Positions 6,294-46,768 of a stretch of DNA of 64,000 bases are shown here, piece by piece. The DNA comes from Gammaproteobacteria bacterium (GTDB taxonomy: Bacteria; Pseudomonadota; Gammaproteobacteria; SZUA-140), in the NCBI GenBank assembly GCA_020845975.1, contig JADLET010000084.1, forward strand, positions 2,509-66,508, given 5' to 3'. Every line of letters begins with the position of its first letter. The stretch's first letter is position 1. The notes under the pieces are model-generated. The model did not search any database. It worked only from the letters and a program-made list of their open reading frames with translations, and was not told the DNA's origin. The position numbers and the translations under genes are program-made.

Positions 6294-7067
6294 TTACAGC
6301 TCGCAGTCGTAGTCGATGGTCAGCGGAGCGTGATCGGAAAAGCGCTCGTCCTTGTAGATGGACACCATCCTGACCCGATCCTTCAGTCCGGGCGTGATTA
6401 CCTGGTAGTCGATGCGCCAGCCGACGTTCTTGGCCCAGGCCTGACCGCGATTGGACCACCAGGTGTACTGGTCCGCCTCCTGATTGACGACACGGAAGGC
6501 GTCGACGAAACCGAGCGGCACGAACAACTGGTCCATCCAGGCGCGCTCCTCGGGAAGAAAGCCGGAGTTCTTCTGATTGCCGCGCCAGTTCTTGATGTCC
6601 AGTTTTGTATGCGCGATGTTCCAGTCGCCGCAGATGACATACTCGCGTTTCCCGCAGCGAAATTCCTTGAGCACCGGGGTGAAGCGTTCCAGAAAATCGA
6701 ACTTCACCGCCTGGCGGTCCTCACTGCTGGAACCCGACGGAAGATACAGCGAGATCACACTGAGCGAACCGAAATCCGCCTGGATGAAACGCCCCTCCCG
6801 ATCCATGTCCGGCCAGCCGAGCCCCATCGTGACCTGGTCGGGCTCGCGCCGGCAATAGAGCGCCACGCCGCTGTAACCCTTCTTCTCCGCATCGTGATAA
6901 TAGGCGAAGTAACCGGCCGGCCTCAGCAACTCATCGTTCAGCTGATGCTCCTGCGACTTGGTCTCCTGCAGACACACCACATCGGCGCCCTGTCGCGCGA
7001 GCCACGGGAAGAAACCCTTGCGGGCAGCCGAGCGTATGCCATTGGCGTTCAGGCTGATGATGCGCAT
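6294..7067 (-). CDS. xthA: Exodeoxyribonuclease III
   Basis: MRIISLNANGIR N-terminus and C-terminal SDHAPL motif. Start re-placed on the internal ATG preceded by AGGGA (8 nt). The ORF-track start at 7100 is a GTG. Confidence 0.85.
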   Translation of the reverse strand: MRIISLNANGIRSAARKGFFPWLARQGADVVCLQETKSQEHQLNDELLRPAGYFAYYHDAEKKGYSGVALYCRREPDQVTMGLGWPDMDREGRFIQADFGSLSVISLYLPSGSSSEDRQAVKFDFLERFTPVLKEFRCGKREYVICGDWNIAHTKLDIKNWRGNQKNSGFLPEERAWMDQLFVPLGFVDAFRVVNQEADQYTWWSNRGQAWAKNVGWRIDYQVITPGLKDRVRMVSIYKDERFSDHAPLTIDYDCEL

Positions 7068-7163
7068 CAATGCCATCCCTTGCTTGTCTGTCGAAGGCAC
7101 CGATGATACTGGAGCCGACGCGCGGCGTGAATTTGGAAGGCGCGGGAATTTTCCATGGATTGC

Positions 7164-7196
7164 TTGACATCTGAAAATTTCATCTCACACTAGACC
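7164..7196 (+). promoter_or_regulatory. Putative sigma70-like promoter for the leader transcript (TTGACA at 7164-7169 with a weak -10); orientation ambiguous
   Basis: Perfect TTGACA hexamer in the AT-richer stretch ttgcTTGACAtctgaaaatttcatctcacactagacc. The -10 is poor. It could equally be read on the minus strand as an xthA promoter. Confidence 0.25.
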
Positions 7197-7693
7197 GATC
7201 AGCGCTCCACGCAGAAGGGAGCAGAGGGGGATGAAACGGTCGCGCTCCGCCGTCAAGCACCCGCACGCACTGGACTGGTCCGGTCCCGGCTCGACTGCCG
7301 TGGCGACGAGGATGCGGTCCCGGGTTCCGCTTCTCCCCGGATACGGCGACACCGCCGTCATCACCGCCCTCTATCCGCTCTCCCATACACCATCGCGTAC
7401 ATGGTCCGGCCGCACCCCGGGCGCATGACGTCACCCGCGTTTCTCCCCGGGCAAGGATGTCCATCGGGGAAACCGGCGCGGTCCGGCGGGTCTCCGCCGG
7501 ACCGCACCGTAATCCCGCCAGTCAGGCGGGATGCAGGCAAGACACCGGTCGCACCGCCATGGAAGCGGTCGCCCGTCCGCAATCCGCAGCATATCCGGCC
7601 ATGGCACAAACGGGATGCCGACAACCTGCGACACGTAACAGACAGCGGTCATCCTCACGCACGCACGCAACGGCCGGATAACGGTACGACATG

Positions 7694-7722
7694 AAAAAAA
7701 GCGGCCTGAATGCCGCTTTTTC
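7694..7722 (+). terminator. Intrinsic (rho-independent) terminator, bidirectional shape, 43 nt upstream of the parA-like start codon
   Basis: aaaaaaaGCGGCctgaatGCCGCttttt: GC stem, 6-nt loop, A-tract before and T-tract after. Confidence 0.7.
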
Positions 7723-7764
7723 ATGCCCATAAATGCCGTCGTCACGGGTGGAGGGACACGACAC

Positions 7765-8892
7765 ATGATCACGATCGCCATCGCCAATCAAAAGGGGGGA
7801 TGCGGCAAAACCACCGCCGCCATCAATCTGGCCGCCGCGCTGGGACGCAATGGCCATCGCGTACTGCTGGTCGACACCGATCCCCAGGGCCATGCCTCGC
7901 TGGGACTGGGACAACACTGCGGCAATCTGAACGGATTGTACGAGGTATTCATCCAGGAAGCAGAGCTCAGCGAGGTCATCATCCCCGCGGTAGCGCCCGG
8001 AGTCGATCTGGTGCCGTCGACCATCTCGCTCGCCGCCATCGAACACCTGCTGGCGGATCTGCCCCGCCGCGAGCGCCAGCTCGCGCAGCATCTGGACAGC
8101 CTGCCCCTGAACTACGACTTCGCCATCATCGACTGCCCGCCCACGCTCGGCCTGCTCTCATTCAATGCCTTGCGCGCCGCGGACCTGGTGCTGATACCGG
8201 TGGAGATGAGCGTGTTCGCGCTGGACGGGGTGGACCGCCTGCGTGACACCATCGAACTGCTGGCGGAAAAATACGAACTCGACATACCGGTACGCATACT
8301 GCCCAATCTGGTTGATCACCGCACCCGCTTCACGCAGGACACGCTGCATCGCCTGAAGGAGCGCTTCGGCGAGGAGATCCTCCCGGTGAGCATTCACTAT
8401 ACCGTGCGACTGAAGGAGGCCGCGGCGCGCGGCATACCCATCATCGATCACCAGCCCGGCTCGGTGGCGAGCGACAATTATCTCGCCCTGGCGGCGGAGA
8501 TCCTCCGCTTCAATGCGCAGACCATGCCTCGCGCACAGTCCGCGCGCGCTCCGTACGACGTCCCCCTTCCCGTCAGCCGCACTGTGGAAGAGCCGGATGA
8601 CGCGGATTACCGGCGGGACGTCAGCATGATCTTCCACGGACCCGCCGGGATCGATATCCAGATCGCCGGCGACTTCAACGGCTGGGCGCCCGATCAGGGG
8701 GTGGTGACGGAACGTCATGACGACATGCTGATCAAGACCCTGCATGTCGGTCCAGGACGCTATCAATACCGCCTGATCGTCAACGGGGAATGGCGCGCCG
8801 ACCCCACCAACCCGCGCTTCGAGACCAATGAATACGGCGAGATCAATTCCGTGCTCGAAGTGGAGGACATCCCGCACCTCGTCCCCGCATGA
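7765..8892 (+). CDS. ParA/MinD-family (deviant Walker A) ATPase fused to a C-terminal AMPK-beta glycogen-binding-like (CBM48/E-set) domain
   Basis: Start placed at the ATG giving MITIAIANQKGGCGKTT (KGGxGKT deviant Walker A), with GGAGGG SD 9 nt upstream. The ORF-track ATG at 7723 lies inside the terminator T-tract. The C-terminal ~90 aa VSMIFHGPAGIDIQIAGDFNGWAPD...GPGRYQYRLIVNGEWRADPTNPRF...NSVLEV matches the AMPK1_CBM/CBM48 consensus (F.W.G..V.L.GSFNNW...G.HQYKF.VDG.W..DP..P). Confidence 0.8.
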   Translation: MITIAIANQKGGCGKTTAAINLAAALGRNGHRVLLVDTDPQGHASLGLGQHCGNLNGLYEVFIQEAELSEVIIPAVAPGVDLVPSTISLAAIEHLLADLPRRERQLAQHLDSLPLNYDFAIIDCPPTLGLLSFNALRAADLVLIPVEMSVFALDGVDRLRDTIELLAEKYELDIPVRILPNLVDHRTRFTQDTLHRLKERFGEEILPVSIHYTVRLKEAAARGIPIIDHQPGSVASDNYLALAAEILRFNAQTMPRAQSARAPYDVPLPVSRTVEEPDDADYRRDVSMIFHGPAGIDIQIAGDFNGWAPDQGVVTERHDDMLIKTLHVGPGRYQYRLIVNGEWRADPTNPRFETNEYGEINSVLEVEDIPHLVPA

Positions 8893-9602
8893 TACGCCGC
8901 CCGGAGGACACCGGACCGAAGGAGCGGCTGCAGAGCATCAGTCGCCATTTCCTCGATGAGGGACATTCCCCCCGCTGCATTGCCGTGCTCGGCGTTGCTG
9001 AAAACCCTCATGCCATCCCCATCGATGGCCTGGCCCGCGCACTGGCCGGACGCGGCATCGCGGTCGCCGTCACGGACACGGCCGCGAAACTGCTTGTGCA
9101 TGTTTGCCAGGAACCTGGCGGCATCAGACCCGCCACTGACATCGCGCCATTGTCCAGAGGCCGCGACGACACGCTGGCCAGGCCGCGCCGCGGAGCGCCT
9201 CCCGAATTGATGCTCATCACGACCCCACCGACGGATGCCCGGACCTGCTCCCTGATATTGCTGGCCGTTCCGGCGCAGGCACATGGCATGCGCTCCGCCT
9301 ATCGCAGACTCAAGGGTCTGGCGCGACTCAATCCCATGCCCGCGATCGGAATCACACTGACCGATGCCCGCACATGCGACGAGGCGGCCGCCGGTTTCGC
9401 CCGCTTCGCATCCGCGGCCAGGCGCTTTCTCGGCATCGGGGTCACCAGTTACTCGTACCTCGCCGCCGGCCGGACACGCGGTGAAGACGAGGCATCACTC
9501 AACGATATCGCACGCCTGCTGCTGGCCGATCTGCGCCGCGCGGACCAGGCTGATCAGCTGATGAAATCGCCGGACCAGGAGGCGCCATGGGTATGCGGAT
9601 AA
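8889..9602 (+). CDS. Hypothetical protein with a degenerate ParA/MinD-like fold lacking a P-loop (candidate partner of the upstream ATPase)
   Basis: ATGA start/stop overlap with the upstream gene. Secondary-structure-like pattern CIAVLGV...GIAVAVTDTA...ELMLITTPP...LILLAVP...GITLTDA resembles the ParA core but has no GxxGxGK[ST]. Confidence 0.55.
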   Translation: MIRRPEDTGPKERLQSISRHFLDEGHSPRCIAVLGVAENPHAIPIDGLARALAGRGIAVAVTDTAAKLLVHVCQEPGGIRPATDIAPLSRGRDDTLARPRRGAPPELMLITTPPTDARTCSLILLAVPAQAHGMRSAYRRLKGLARLNPMPAIGITLTDARTCDEAAAGFARFASAARRFLGIGVTSYSYLAAGRTRGEDEASLNDIARLLLADLRRADQADQLMKSPDQEAPWVCG

Positions 9603-10162
9603 AAACCCTCACACTGACATCCGGACAGATCCTGCGTGAACTGATCGTGGATGCCTTGCCGCAAATCCTCGGGGAGGATTTCTCGATCGTCAGCGCTGAC
9701 CTCCCGTTCGATGGCAGCCTGATGCTGTGCCTGGATGCGAAACGACATCCGGCGCTGGTGGCCTTCGATGCCCGCGACAGTGGTCGCGCGCTGCTGGCGG
9801 CTCTGCGTGCCGTGGAAAGACTGGGAGACAACCGCGGCATGCTGTTTCGTCTCTATCCCGCGCTGTTCCCGGACAATGGCCGCCACTTCCCTGAGAACGA
9901 ACTTCGCCTCGTACTGCTCGCACCGGAAGCGCCCCCGGGCACGGCGTATCTTGCCCGCGCCTTTCCGGCCCTGAGTGCTTATACCTTTCGCATCCTGGAG
10001 ATCGACGGAAACCTCGGGCTGCTGGTCGATCCGGCCGCGACCGACACCGGGCGCATCGAGGACGGGGTTCCGCCGGAGACGCCATGCGCGCCGTTCCGCT
10101 GCGGCCTCGACCCCGGGCAGGCGCTCAGCGCACAGGAGGAGCGTCACTTCGCGGACGCCTGA
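9587..10162 (+). CDS. Hypothetical protein (third gene of the ParA-like operon)
   Basis: Overlaps the stop of the previous gene by 16 nt. No recognisable motif. High-GC codon usage consistent with host. Confidence 0.5.
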   Translation: MGMRIKTLTLTSGQILRELIVDALPQILGEDFSIVSADLPFDGSLMLCLDAKRHPALVAFDARDSGRALLAALRAVERLGDNRGMLFRLYPALFPDNGRHFPENELRLVLLAPEAPPGTAYLARAFPALSAYTFRILEIDGNLGLLVDPAATDTGRIEDGVPPETPCAPFRCGLDPGQALSAQEERHFADA

Positions 10163-10899: not shown

Positions 10900-11056
10900 C
10901 CAGATGAAGGCGCAGAGCGCCGGAATCCGGGAGCATCTATCTAAGACAATCCCCGGATTCCGCTACGCTTCATCCAGGCTACGCTTGCTGTCATTGTCCA
11001 AGGCCAGCAGTTCGATCCCACACAAAGTTGGCCTCGCAAGAAACACTCAACCCAAC

Positions 11057-11476
11057 CTAGGCCTGTTTCAGCGACACTCCATCCGGAATGTAATGCACAT
11101 TGCTTTGGAATTGCTCCCGCCAGCTCCAAAGGTATTCGGTTAGTTTCTGAACTCGGTTTTTACTTAGACAATTCACAGACTGGTCTTGAGTTATGAATTG
11201 AAATAGCTCTTGACCAACATCCTCTCGGCACCACATTGAAAATTTCGTGAGTTCATTTAGTTCTCGATAATTGATTGCCAACGTCATTGGCTCGAATTTT
11301 ATTCTGCTCAGAGCATGGACAATTGCAGTCCGTTCGTAAGAAACACCTAATCTTACACACATCTGCTCGGCCACGTCTGCCCCTGCAAGCCCTTTCTCCC
11401 ACGCCTTATCCGCATTAACACACAGGTACATTAGAAATGCAGACCATTCTCCTGATACTTCAATTTGTCGGCCCAT
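11057..11476 (-). CDS. Hypothetical protein B of the low-GC two-gene cassette (139 aa)
   Basis: ~40% GC. Start placed at the ATG with GAGGAGG SD 10 nt upstream; the ORF-track first codon is TTG. The SD overlaps the stop codon of upstream gene A. No recognisable domain. Confidence 0.6.
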   Translation of the reverse strand: MGRQIEVSGEWSAFLMYLCVNADKAWEKGLAGADVAEQMCVRLGVSYERTAIVHALSRIKFEPMTLAINYRELNELTKFSMWCREDVGQELFQFITQDQSVNCLSKNRVQKLTEYLWSWREQFQSNVHYIPDGVSLKQA

Positions 11477-11491
11477 AACTTCCAAGCCTCC

Positions 11492-11884
11492 TCAAATTGT
11501 GGCATTGAAATATTGCTTCAAGCTTGTGTTAATCCCACCAGACGCATACGTAACAATATGAGTTGACGTGTCAACTGATACAAATTTAATTCCCGGGTGG
11601 TGTCTATCTTCGTATGTGCCGGGGTTATTGTAGATCTCCTGCATAACAGAAACTGGCATTAGATAATACACGGCGGCACTTCCACAAACCCATAGCTCGT
11701 AGTCAGCGGATAACGTGTTTGGATTGATATTGAACTTGTATTTTTCTGGAGCGCGCGAACTCTGAGAACAGAACCGAACATGAACTATGGAACCTTTAAT
11801 CTTATATTTGGCTTTTCCAAGGAAAGAAATATCTGACCCATTTGCAATCACCGATAATGCAGATTTCTTTTCTGCAGTGCTCAT
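11492..11884 (-). CDS. Hypothetical protein A of the low-GC two-gene cassette (130 aa)
   Basis: ATG with AGGA 8 nt upstream (aaaaggaaaacgccATG). AT-rich codon usage unlike the host. No recognisable domain. Confidence 0.6.
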   Translation of the reverse strand: MSTAEKKSALSVIANGSDISFLGKAKYKIKGSIVHVRFCSQSSRAPEKYKFNINPNTLSADYELWVCGSAAVYYLMPVSVMQEIYNNPGTYEDRHHPGIKFVSVDTSTHIVTYASGGINTSLKQYFNATI

Positions 11885-11964
11885 GGCGTTTTCCTTTTCA
11901 AATGATAATTCAACGTAATTAGAATTCGACAGCCTTGACGTATAAATCTACCAATCTAATTCAT

Positions 11965-11972
11965 ATAGTAGC
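11965..11972. repeat. 8-bp direct repeat ATAGTAGC, right copy, at the right edge of the low-GC insertion
   Basis: Same 8-mer as 10892-10899. Lies 5 nt upstream of the tauE stop codon region. Confidence 0.35.
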
Positions 11973-11976
11973 GCCA

Positions 11977-12732
11977 TCACCCAACCACCAGCTTCACCCC
12001 CACCAGCAGCGTCACCACCTCGAACGCACGCTTGATCATTTGGTTACCCTGCGCGATCGCGATGTGCGCGCCGAGGTAGCCGCCGATCAGTGAACCGAGC
12101 AGCAGCGCGGGCAGCCAGTCCCAGCGTACCGCCGCCTGCAGGCCGAGGGCGAGCGCGCCGGCGCCGTTCCAGAACAGGCCGACCAGGATCAGCGTATAGG
12201 CGACCGCGCGCTTGTAGTCGAAGCCGAACCAGCGGATCAGCCACAGGGTCGCGAACAACCCGGTCCCGGAGGACAGCGATCCGTTGACGACCCCGATCAG
12301 GAACAGGCATGCCCCGCCGATCATGAATCCGCGCCGGTCGCGATGTCGCGGCTGGTGTTCCTGACCGAGGCCCGGCTTGAGCCAGGAATAGATCCCCAGC
12401 CCCAGGGTAAGCAGGCCGAGCGTGACCTGGGCCGCGCGATCGGGGACCAGCAGGATCAGGCGCGCGCCCAGCACCACCCCGGGCAGGCCGGCGACCAGCA
12501 TGAAGCCGGCGAAGCGCCGCTCCACCCCGCCTGCCTTCAGATATCGCAGGGTCGCGCCGATACCCAAGGCAACCGTTGCTATCTTGTGCGTTGCGAGCGC
12601 CGTGCCGAAAGGCAGGCCAAGAAAGATCAGCACAGGCAGCTGGATCAGCCCGGCCCCACCCCCGGACAGGGCCGAGAACATGTTCGCCACGAGTGATATG
12701 GCAAACAGGATCAACTGGCTCAACCAGTCCAT
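11977..12732 (-). CDS. TauE/SafE (TSUP) family sulfite/anion exporter-type permease
   Basis: Poly-TM protein with duplicated halves and GxGGG-like motif (SALSGGGAGLIQLPVLIF). 251 aa. Confidence 0.8.
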   Translation of the reverse strand: MDWLSQLILFAISLVANMFSALSGGGAGLIQLPVLIFLGLPFGTALATHKIATVALGIGATLRYLKAGGVERRFAGFMLVAGLPGVVLGARLILLVPDRAAQVTLGLLTLGLGIYSWLKPGLGQEHQPRHRDRRGFMIGGACLFLIGVVNGSLSSGTGLFATLWLIRWFGFDYKRAVAYTLILVGLFWNGAGALALGLQAAVRWDWLPALLLGSLIGGYLGAHIAIAQGNQMIKRAFEVVTLLVGVKLVVG

Positions 12733-46401: not shown

Positions 46402-46768
46402 TGAGGTGGGAGCCGGCCTGTAAGCCGGGTTCTGTCGTGGACAGTCATTCATCTGGGACACGCGTTACCGCGCGCCTCAAGCGACCTACCCGGGAACAGT
46501 GCGGGCCGCACCAATGTTCCCCTATTTGGTCTTGCTCCGGATGGGGTTTACACTGCCACTGGTGTTACCACCAGCGCGGTGCGCTCTTACCGCACCATTT
46601 CACCCTTACCCGCCACCTCACGGCGGCAGGCGGTATATTTTCTGTTGCACTGGCCGTCGGCTCACGCCGCCCAGGCGTTACCTGGCATCCCGCCCTATGG
46701 AGCCCGGACTTTCCTCCTCCTCCTGCCGCTTGAGGCGACAGGGAAAGCGACTGTCCGGCCGACTCCCG
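46402..46768 (-). ncRNA. rnpB: RNase P RNA (bacterial type A, M1 RNA homologue)
   Basis: The reverse complement contains the universally conserved blocks GGAAAGTCCGGGCTCCATAGGGC, AGGTAACGCCTGG, CAGTGCAACAGAAA, GGGTGAAA.GGTGCGGTAAGAGCGCACC and CCCGGGTAGG.CGCTTGAG, aligned to E. coli M1 RNA. P1 pairs GGAGTCGGCC with GGCCGGCTCC. Confidence 0.9.

Follow-up and report, generated by a model that had tools for sequence, protein, structure and literature searches.

We asked what a ParA-type ATPase could be doing when a glycogen-binding module is fused to its C-terminus, and whether the two genes that follow it encode its partners. The question is raised by a 64,000 nucleotide stretch of gammaproteobacterial DNA (the window, meaning this whole stretch; all coordinates are window positions unless a locus is named). 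Three genes, here called g1, g2 and g3, occupy positions 7765-10162 of the + strand:

7765..8892, + strand: g1, a ParA-type ATPase fused to a CBM48 domain, 375 amino acids, from Pfam matches
8889..9602, + strand: g2, a pseudo-ATPase with a ParA/MinD (FlhG/FleN-like) fold, 237 amino acids
9587..10162, + strand: g3, a putative PD-(D/E)xK-fold (NucS-like) domain, with a disordered linker leading to a conserved C-terminal peptide, 191 amino acids

As judged from sequence and gene order, the locus is the local three-gene form of a widespread four-gene ParA-type module. The genes of the full set encode a MerR-like protein, the ParA-CBM48 fusion, a pseudo-ParA and a PD-(D/E)xK-like protein. The module itself is solid, and it is probably an undescribed means of positioning or sensing glycogen; our explanation of what it does, set out below, is more tentative.

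The three genes are tightly packed. The sequence ATGA, at 8889-8892, is both the g1 stop and the g2 start, and g2 overlaps g3 by 16 nucleotides (9587-9602). A Shine-Dalgarno element for g3, AGGAGG, is located at 9577-9582, with the ATG 4 nucleotides further on. No such element was found at a usable distance for g2, consistent with coupling by termination and reinitiation. The g1 start is at 7765, rather than 7723, as indicated by GGAGGG at 7750-7755 and by the identical start kept in relatives. A scan for terminators predicted no internal terminator-like site in the g1-g2-g3 unit. Downstream is pyrE (TIGR00336, 194 bits versus a cut-off of 106.8). Upstream, on the minus strand, is xth, encoding exodeoxyribonuclease III (TIGR00633, above the NCBIfam cut-off). 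The GC content of the module equals that of its flanks, and related genomes keep the module at one chromosomal position, between xth and pyrE. An initial annotation, made from the window alone, had described three coupled genes with these overlaps, followed by pyrE. The reading frames, both overlaps and pyrE are all present, and overlapping junctions are conserved in relatives.

We turned to other genomes to understand how far this arrangement extends. A word-index search found thousands of close homologues for g1, compared with 10 for g2 and 13 for g3. The contexts of the first relatives were completely syntenic and hence uninformative on co-conservation. One genome per species was scanned with the C-terminal half of g1. 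The ParA-CBM48 fusion was detected in at least 488 species. The best 80 of these at least 488 species loci, plus L001 and L002, from the lineage of the window, formed a set of 82 that was analysed with iterated hidden Markov models (HMMs). About eight phyla are represented. The set includes Gammaproteobacteria (Acidiferrobacterales, Thiogranum, Thiohalobacter), Myxococcota, other Deltaproteobacteria, Spirochaetales, Planctomycetota (including Kuenenia), Nitrospirota, Gemmatimonadales, Acidobacteriota and Zixibacteria.

At 57 of the 82 loci, the gene immediately after g1, on the same strand, is a g2 homologue. The number rises to 63 for genes that carry the g2 N-terminal peptide described below (a motif scan adds L013, L061 and L063), and a g3 homologue directly follows g2 at about 45 loci. 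Junction gaps are mostly between -21 and +100 nucleotides, and overlaps of 4 or 8 nucleotides are common. The order, with overlapping stops and starts, is conserved in Gammaproteobacteria, Myxococcota, Spirochaetota, Nitrospirota, Gemmatimonadota and some Planctomycetota. Additional loci (L083-L088 and L092) have the identical gene order. Since dozens of species, in different phyla, repeat this order with tight or overlapping junctions, it reflects more than chance. The initial annotation's case for a module hung on co-conservation of the second and third genes with ParA-CBM48, and this is what the loci contain.

Gene fusions link g2 and g3 further. An exhaustive search with a g3 profile recovered only 90 clusters among 1.84 billion representatives; the distant g3 homologues whose contexts were inspected lay mainly on short contigs. 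Four of the 90 clusters are g2-g3 fusion proteins, of 426-469 amino acids, and open reading frames at L003 and L074 are likewise fused. In Gemmatimonadales (L054, L067 and L069), and also in clusters P0168 and P0170, the g2 peptide is joined to the g3 domain, and the pseudo-ParA core is absent. We conclude that g2 and g3 appear to form a single functional unit. Separately, four Planctomycetota loci (L074-L076 and L079) encode proteins of 498-560 amino acids that begin with the peptide and a g2-like part. In the same phylum, loci having no g2, g3 or MerR-like neighbour are L020, L025, L033, L045-L050, L056, L057, L060, L062, L066 and L072; a ParA-CBM48 gene of Kuenenia stuttgartiensis is among those lacking all three.

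The fourth gene is found upstream. At 38 of 80 loci, g1 is immediately preceded, on its own strand, by a MerR_1-type helix-turn-helix (HTH) gene that encodes 150-185 amino acids. Carriers include L004, L007, L012, L015, L016, L031, L081, L088 (1497-1976), L092 (1701-2186) and about 30 more loci. The protein is highly conserved, and its C-terminal part reads '...LVxTGDVVLVFxxGxAFxAxSGQEWVF'. Locus L088 is flanked as in the window and has the order xth, MerR, ParA-CBM48, g2, g3, pyrE. Based on such arrangements, the ancestral module is read here as having four genes, the MerR-like one included. A second regulator follows the module at 12 loci, all from Myxococcota or Spirochaetes (L011, L012, L014, L016, L017, L022, L027, L034, L041, L043, L059 and L082). 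This is an extracytoplasmic function (ECF) type sigma factor, with Sigma70_r2 and r4_2 domains and about 215-250 amino acids, encoded on the same strand about 100 nucleotides downstream of g3. Proteins with an ATP-cone are encoded upstream at 8 loci.

The ATPase, g1, has the following parts:

7765..8514, + strand: Soj-like ParA domain, amino acids 1-250, from PDB matches
7792..7815, + strand: deviant Walker A motif KGGCGKTT, amino acids 10-17, with the signature lysine, read from sequence
8515..8643, + strand: variable linker between ParA and CBM48, with no conserved columns in the family alignment
8644..8868, + strand: CBM48, an AMPK-beta-type glycogen-binding module, Pfam residues 294-368

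Matches to AAA_31 (173 bits versus a cut-off of 27, 6e-51) and CbiA (82.5 versus 25.4) place the ParA-type domain at residues 3-246. The best matches in the PDB are ParA (8ray, 7e-47), Soj (1wcv, 2e-37; 2bek, about 1e-37) and HpSoj (6iub). The Walker A sequence ANQKGGCGKTT is kept in 121 family members, and the Walker A' and B regions align with those of Soj. In Soj, arginine 189 is required for non-specific DNA binding. Opposite this arginine (the R in the 'DGRT' of 1wcv) g1 has R186, with a conservation of at least 90% among the 121 members. By these alignments, g1 is a complete ParA, closest to chromosomal ParA/Soj.

The C-terminal module matches AMPK1_CBM/CBM48 (PF16561) at residues 294-368, with 44.4 bits versus a cut-off of 26.8 (2e-11). 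More than 120 g1 homologues were listed and all have PF16561. The module aligns with the carbohydrate-binding module (CBM) of AMPK beta1 and beta2 (2f15 and 1z0n, about 1e-8; phmmer 8e-9), pairing FNGW with FNNW, QYRL with QYKF, NGEW with DGQW, and EINS with TINN (g1 first in each case). We take W100, K126, W133 and N150 of AMPK beta1, the two Trp by stacking, to be the cyclodextrin/glycan contacts in 1z0m/1z0n. At these positions g1 has W, R (for K), W and N, which are invariant in the family alignment (A3). We conclude that the g1 CBM48 retains the glycogen-contact residues of AMPK beta and is a putative glycogen binder. Some ParA-CBM48 proteins are long, at 590-742 amino acids (L031 1063-3291, L081 4114-6282, P0114, P0115, P0119, P0120, P0130 and P0135). 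In the Nitrospirota protein at L031, a linker of about 380 amino acids, with weak coiled-coil-type Pfam matches, separates the ParA domain from CBM48.

Neither g2 nor g3 matches any Pfam or NCBIfam model. Two sites in g2 are relevant here:

8913..8960, + strand: N-terminal peptide GPKERLQSISRHFLDE, a ParB-like ParA-binding motif extended by S-x-H-F-L
8979..9020, + strand: degenerate P-loop site IAVLGVAENPHAIP, without GKT, aligned opposite FleN VIAVTGGKGGVGKTNVS

Pairwise BLAST of g1 against g2 detected no significant similarity, so profile and structure comparisons were used for g2. A profile built from 68 g2 sequences is colinear with the ParA domain of g1 (hhalign E 2.4e-4, probability 44%). 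Searched against PDB sequences, the g2 profile has its best matches in FleN; these are weak but in register. In structure, g2 is nearest to FlhG and FleN, and it has the SIMIBI/ParA-MinD fold. In the alignments, 'GVAENPHAIP' of g2 sits opposite GGKGGVGKT of FleN, and 'LITTPP' opposite 'IIDCPP' of ParA. No g2 family member has a Walker A motif, or P-loop, at the degenerate site. Hence the initial annotation, which had called g2 a ParA-fold paralogue without a P-loop, read it correctly. Lacking Walker A and the Walker B aspartate, g2 cannot act as an ATPase of the FlhG/FleN/MinD type. Unlike those proteins, it has an N-terminal ParB-like peptide instead.

No part of the g2 family is better conserved than this N-terminal helix, or peptide, in which L14 and F21 are conserved to at least 90%. 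The peptide is also the sole element common to all architectures, be it a separate g2, a g2-g3 fusion or the peptide joined to g3. Across 53 loci its logo reads phi-x-[RK]-x-L-x-x-[VI]-[LS]-H-[YH]-F-[LIM]-[SP]-[ED]. Examples are MPRDLADVLHYFLPE in Myxococcota, LGRGLEDVSHVFLS in Gemmatimonadales and KERLQSISRHFLDE in the window; the Gemmatimonadales peptide includes LGRGLEDV. In Myxococcus xanthus ParB, the ParA-binding motif is L11-x-R13-x-L15-x-x-L18-I19, which by itself stimulates ParA when DNA is present (PMC12462528). Positions 1-9 of the g2 logo are this motif, so that g2 carries the partner motif of ParABS systems. We mapped the ParB-binding pocket of M. xanthus ParA (V116, L150, L152, L155, L187 and L192) onto g1 via the 8ray alignment, with the offset checked at D60A. 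The equivalents in g1 are H, L, L, F, L and Y, five of the six being identical or hydrophobic/aromatic. The g1 pocket, similar but individual, could fit the extra S-H-x-F-L part of the peptide.

The last protein, g3, has two conserved regions:

9617..10036, + strand: globular domain, amino acids 11-150, probably non-catalytic, from manual alignment to the NucS motif
10094..10153, + strand: C-terminal motif FRxG...LSxxEExxF, after the disordered linker

A g3 profile found no match among PDB sequences. In the manual register, the position of the first catalytic aspartate of NucS is His in relatives and Leu in the window, and D61-x-R63 replaces (D/E)xK. Positions of this register are less than 80% conserved in the wider family. 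Since the catalytic positions are replaced and poorly conserved, g3 is probably a non-catalytic binding domain. It differs from NucS/EndoMS, and from the PD-(D/E)xK superfamily, in having neither a sequence match to solved structures nor the canonical D...(D/E)xK; the NucS N-terminal domain is also missing. In the C-terminal motif, residues F170, R171, L180, E184 and F188 are invariant in the alignment (A2), and FRxG...LSxxEExxF is still seen in the 60-sequence g3 family and in the fusion proteins.

What might such a module do? The explanation we favour, with a confidence that falls slightly short of even, is that g1 acts as a tether between alpha-glucan granules and the nucleoid, with g2-g3 as an ATPase-activating adaptor that turns the tethers over, so dispersing and partitioning the granules. 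Briefly, g1 would bind ATP, dimerise and reside on nucleoid DNA, as Soj/ParA does. The two CBM48 domains of each dimer, on flexible linkers, would hold alpha-glucan (glycogen) particles. Acting as one adaptor, g2 and g3 would then present the ParB-like peptide of g2, which would dock at the g1 dimer interface, so that ATP is hydrolysed and g1 leaves the DNA. Over many such cycles, granules would be spread across the nucleoid, kept dispersed and inherited by both daughters. The analysis shows the domain identities, the folds, the peptide motif, and that g2 and g3 are co-conserved and fused; we infer that the ligand is glycogen, that the matrix is DNA, that the peptide stimulates the ATPase, and that positioning is the outcome. 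With somewhat more reserve, the module could be a widespread system for glycogen spacing and inheritance, present in at least 488 species of about eight phyla. Its activator would be of a new kind, a dead ParA paralogue with a ParB peptide that acts alongside, or is fused to, a dead PD-(D/E)xK domain.

Glycogen is among the commonest storage inclusions of bacteria, and little is known of how they organise it and pass it on. The cargoes shown for ParA/MinD systems are chromosomes, plasmids, carboxysomes, chemoreceptor arrays, flagella and the division site. If our explanation is true, a polysaccharide cargo would be added to this repertoire, along with two new design principles: a cargo-binding domain placed on the ATPase, and a pseudo-ATPase paralogue used as an activator. 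The ParB-like peptide, found on g2, on g2-g3 fusions or on g3, would also be a natural experiment in the evolution of ParA activators.

Several observations weigh against this explanation. No glycogen-metabolism (glg) genes are enriched among 216 neighbouring open reading frames; hence, the link to glycogen depends on CBM48 alone. The frequent neighbours are regulators, MerR upstream and the ECF sigma factor downstream, which would suit signalling too. About 15 Planctomycetota loci, most of those from that phylum, have neither g2 nor g3 nearby. The converse is found at L090 (2793-4118; the same proteins occur in L091), in an AT-rich genome. Here, a g2-g3 pair retains both the N-terminal peptide and the C-terminal motif, and no ParA-CBM48 is encoded within 3 kb upstream. 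Hence, the pair is separable from g1. In gammaproteobacterial peptides, including that of the window, the basic residue is one position off that of ParB. The structural model of g3 has only moderate confidence. Finally, a cargo-binding domain on the ATPase is unlike known ParA ratchets, and the role of the g3 domain is left unexplained.

The regulatory neighbours lead to a different proposal, in which g1 is a switch that senses glycogen or energy. Held on glycogen or on DNA according to the levels of ATP and glycogen, g1 would act via g2-g3 to control the MerR-like protein or the ECF sigma factor, comparable to FleN-FleQ or Soj-DnaA. FlhG and FleN, nearest to g2 in structure, are themselves regulators, and CBM48 is the glycogen sensor of AMPK. 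Likewise, a MerR-type gene precedes g1 at 38 of 80 loci, a sigma factor gene follows g3 at 12 and, in the lineage of the window, the MerR gene is replaced by a candidate structured leader with a terminal terminator-like hairpin. However, par operons often carry their own autoregulator, so an adjacent transcription factor is not diagnostic, and the window's lineage manages without the MerR gene. Furthermore, a peptide of the ParB activating type and an arginine like that with which Soj binds DNA indicate a DNA-bound ATPase cycle. We regard a switch, the leading alternative, as unlikely. A third possibility is a ParA system for a different cargo; known systems place the partner with the activating peptide on the cargo. 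By this account, the PD-(D/E)xK-fold domain of g3 marks a DNA site or protein assembly, and CBM48 is an anchor to a glycogen matrix or binds something other than glucan. The predicted fold of g3 is typical of DNA-binding nucleases, and its conserved C-terminal peptide is of the docking type. Set against this, the sugar-contact residues of CBM48 are invariant, and canonical catalytic and metal-binding positions are not retained in g3. In addition, the operon and its surroundings contain no centromere-like repeats, only short repeats at chance level. Cargo of another kind also has a low probability.

An ATPase beside a PD-(D/E)xK-fold protein is a common layout for anti-phage defence, and HamA, Shedu and Cap4 are among the top fold matches of g3. 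The locus might thus be a mobile element, a plasmid-type partition cassette or a defence system built from an ATPase and a nuclease-like protein. All of these are highly improbable, given the fixed xth-pyrE chromosomal slot, the native GC content, the degenerate nuclease motif and the absence of any meaningful PADLOC match. PADLOC matched only P-loop or HTH pieces of 30-50 residues, and none of its models of known defence systems was matched beyond these. Conservation of the sequences across phyla is also high.

Comparison with described systems helps to place the proposed granule tethering among them. The module resembles chromosomal ParABS in that the ATPase is nearest to ParA/Soj (8ray, 1wcv and 6iub), with the deviant Walker A and the equivalent of R189, and in that the partner has an N-terminal peptide with the ParB pattern phi-x-R/K-x-phi-x-x-phi-phi. 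Unlike ParABS, the ATPase bears a carbohydrate-binding module, and the partner is a pseudo-ParA with a PD-(D/E)xK-fold protein. There is no ParB in the module (neither a ParB/Srx CTPase domain nor an HTH) and no RHH centromere-binding protein, and no parS or repeat array was found. Hence, the module is not ParABS. Nor is it McdAB, PomXYZ or MinCDE, which it resembles in having a putative activator that bears a peptide. It shares with McdAB, and with ParA/MinD cargo systems of this kind, a ParA-type ATPase beside a small, poorly conserved and presumably activating partner, as well as a putative cargo that is a cytoplasmic inclusion and not DNA. However, McdB is the cargo-binding component of McdAB, whereas the module has its cargo-binding domain on the ATPase. 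The similarity of g1 to McdA is distant (6noo, 1e-13), and neither g2 nor g3 resembles McdB (no family matches).

In M. xanthus, PomXYZ likewise combines one ParA/MinD ATPase with two co-encoded partners. One of these partners is reported to activate the ATPase via a short N-terminal peptide (PMC13170346, PMC7993993). Differences are that PomX and PomY are neither pseudo-ATPases nor PD-(D/E)xK proteins, that PomZ has no CBM, and that the cargo is the division-site complex.

Outside the ParA family, the beta subunit of AMPK has the same CBM48 type with conserved glycan-contact residues. In plants, PTST/FLO6 proteins combine a coiled coil with CBM48 and target partners to starch. In both cases a non-catalytic protein attaches a function to an alpha-glucan particle via CBM48, as g1 might. 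The Nitrospirota g1 variants, with about 380 amino acids of linker before CBM48, can be compared with PTST/FLO6. By contrast, the partner domain in the module is a ParA ATPase, and the module is bacterial. Full-text searches of the open literature and bioRxiv yielded no account of a ParA-CBM48 protein or of these genes as a set. Within that scope, beyond which other papers are possible, the module is undescribed, as first supposed.

Where other lineages have the MerR-like gene, the lineage of the window has about 660-700 nucleotides of non-coding DNA. No MerR-like gene was found in this slot in the window, L001, L002 or L083-L087, or elsewhere in the 64 kb of the window. A decayed copy in 7101-7764 was considered and rejected, because an HMM search of six-frame translations was empty. 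Weak tblastn matches to MerR in L002 disappeared under default statistics. The slot contains two features:

7163..7724, + strand: conserved non-coding stretch of about 560 nucleotides, in five genomes, a candidate structured leader or small RNA
7699..7721, + strand: terminator-like hairpin and T-run, AAGCGGC-N6-GCCGCTTTTT, 43 nucleotides upstream of the g1 ATG

Counterparts of the longer stretch are found in L001 (6275-6836), L002 (6304-6843), L083 (2897-3459) and L086 (2902-3459). The stretch contains a conserved box, CTTGACATC-N13-17-CCACACTAG (from 7163 in the window), a variable middle and about 285 nucleotides of conserved hairpins, the last of them terminator-like. RNAalifold, run on the five sequences, predicted 80 pairs, of which 18 have double compensatory changes. 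The stretch contains no conserved open reading frame. Searches of the gap against Rfam gave no family at the gathering or E-value threshold, and the conserved hairpin box, sought as an exact pattern in metagenome contigs, had 0 matches. The hairpin at 7699-7721 was missed by a consensus terminator scan but is the terminal hairpin of the minimum free energy fold. Since its stem is invariant and its loop variable in the five related genomes, we conclude that it is a real element. Note that the T-run is only 43 nucleotides from the g1 ATG, so the operon may be read through from the non-coding element. The stretch 7163-7724 may therefore be a leader/attenuator of the operon, or a small RNA. The initial annotation had placed a terminator at 7694-7722 and treated the genes between it and pyrE as a self-contained unit. 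The bracketing by hairpin and pyrE stands; the self-containment does not extend to most lineages, in which a MerR-type gene is directly upstream of g1.

Some features of the flanks are of separate interest. Upstream of xth, on the minus strand, is a promoter-like sequence, TTCACG-17-TATCAT (7103-7131), with the -10 box inside a conserved block, GATGATACTGGAG. The NCBIfam model for xth begins at residue 12 of the longest open reading frame, so the xth start is probably near 7067 rather than 7100. On the other side, between pyrE and a TauE-family gene, positions 10900-12000 form a low-GC island (41-50% GC versus 62-69% around it). Two minus-strand open reading frames within it, 11057-11485 (142 amino acids) and 11492-11884 (130 amino acids), have no Pfam or NCBIfam match. 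In L002, unlike the window, the TauE gene directly follows pyrE. The island is probably a recent insertion. Further away, the minus strand at 46405-46766 encodes a class A bacterial RNase P RNA (Rfam RF00010, 345.7 bits), an ordinary housekeeping gene.

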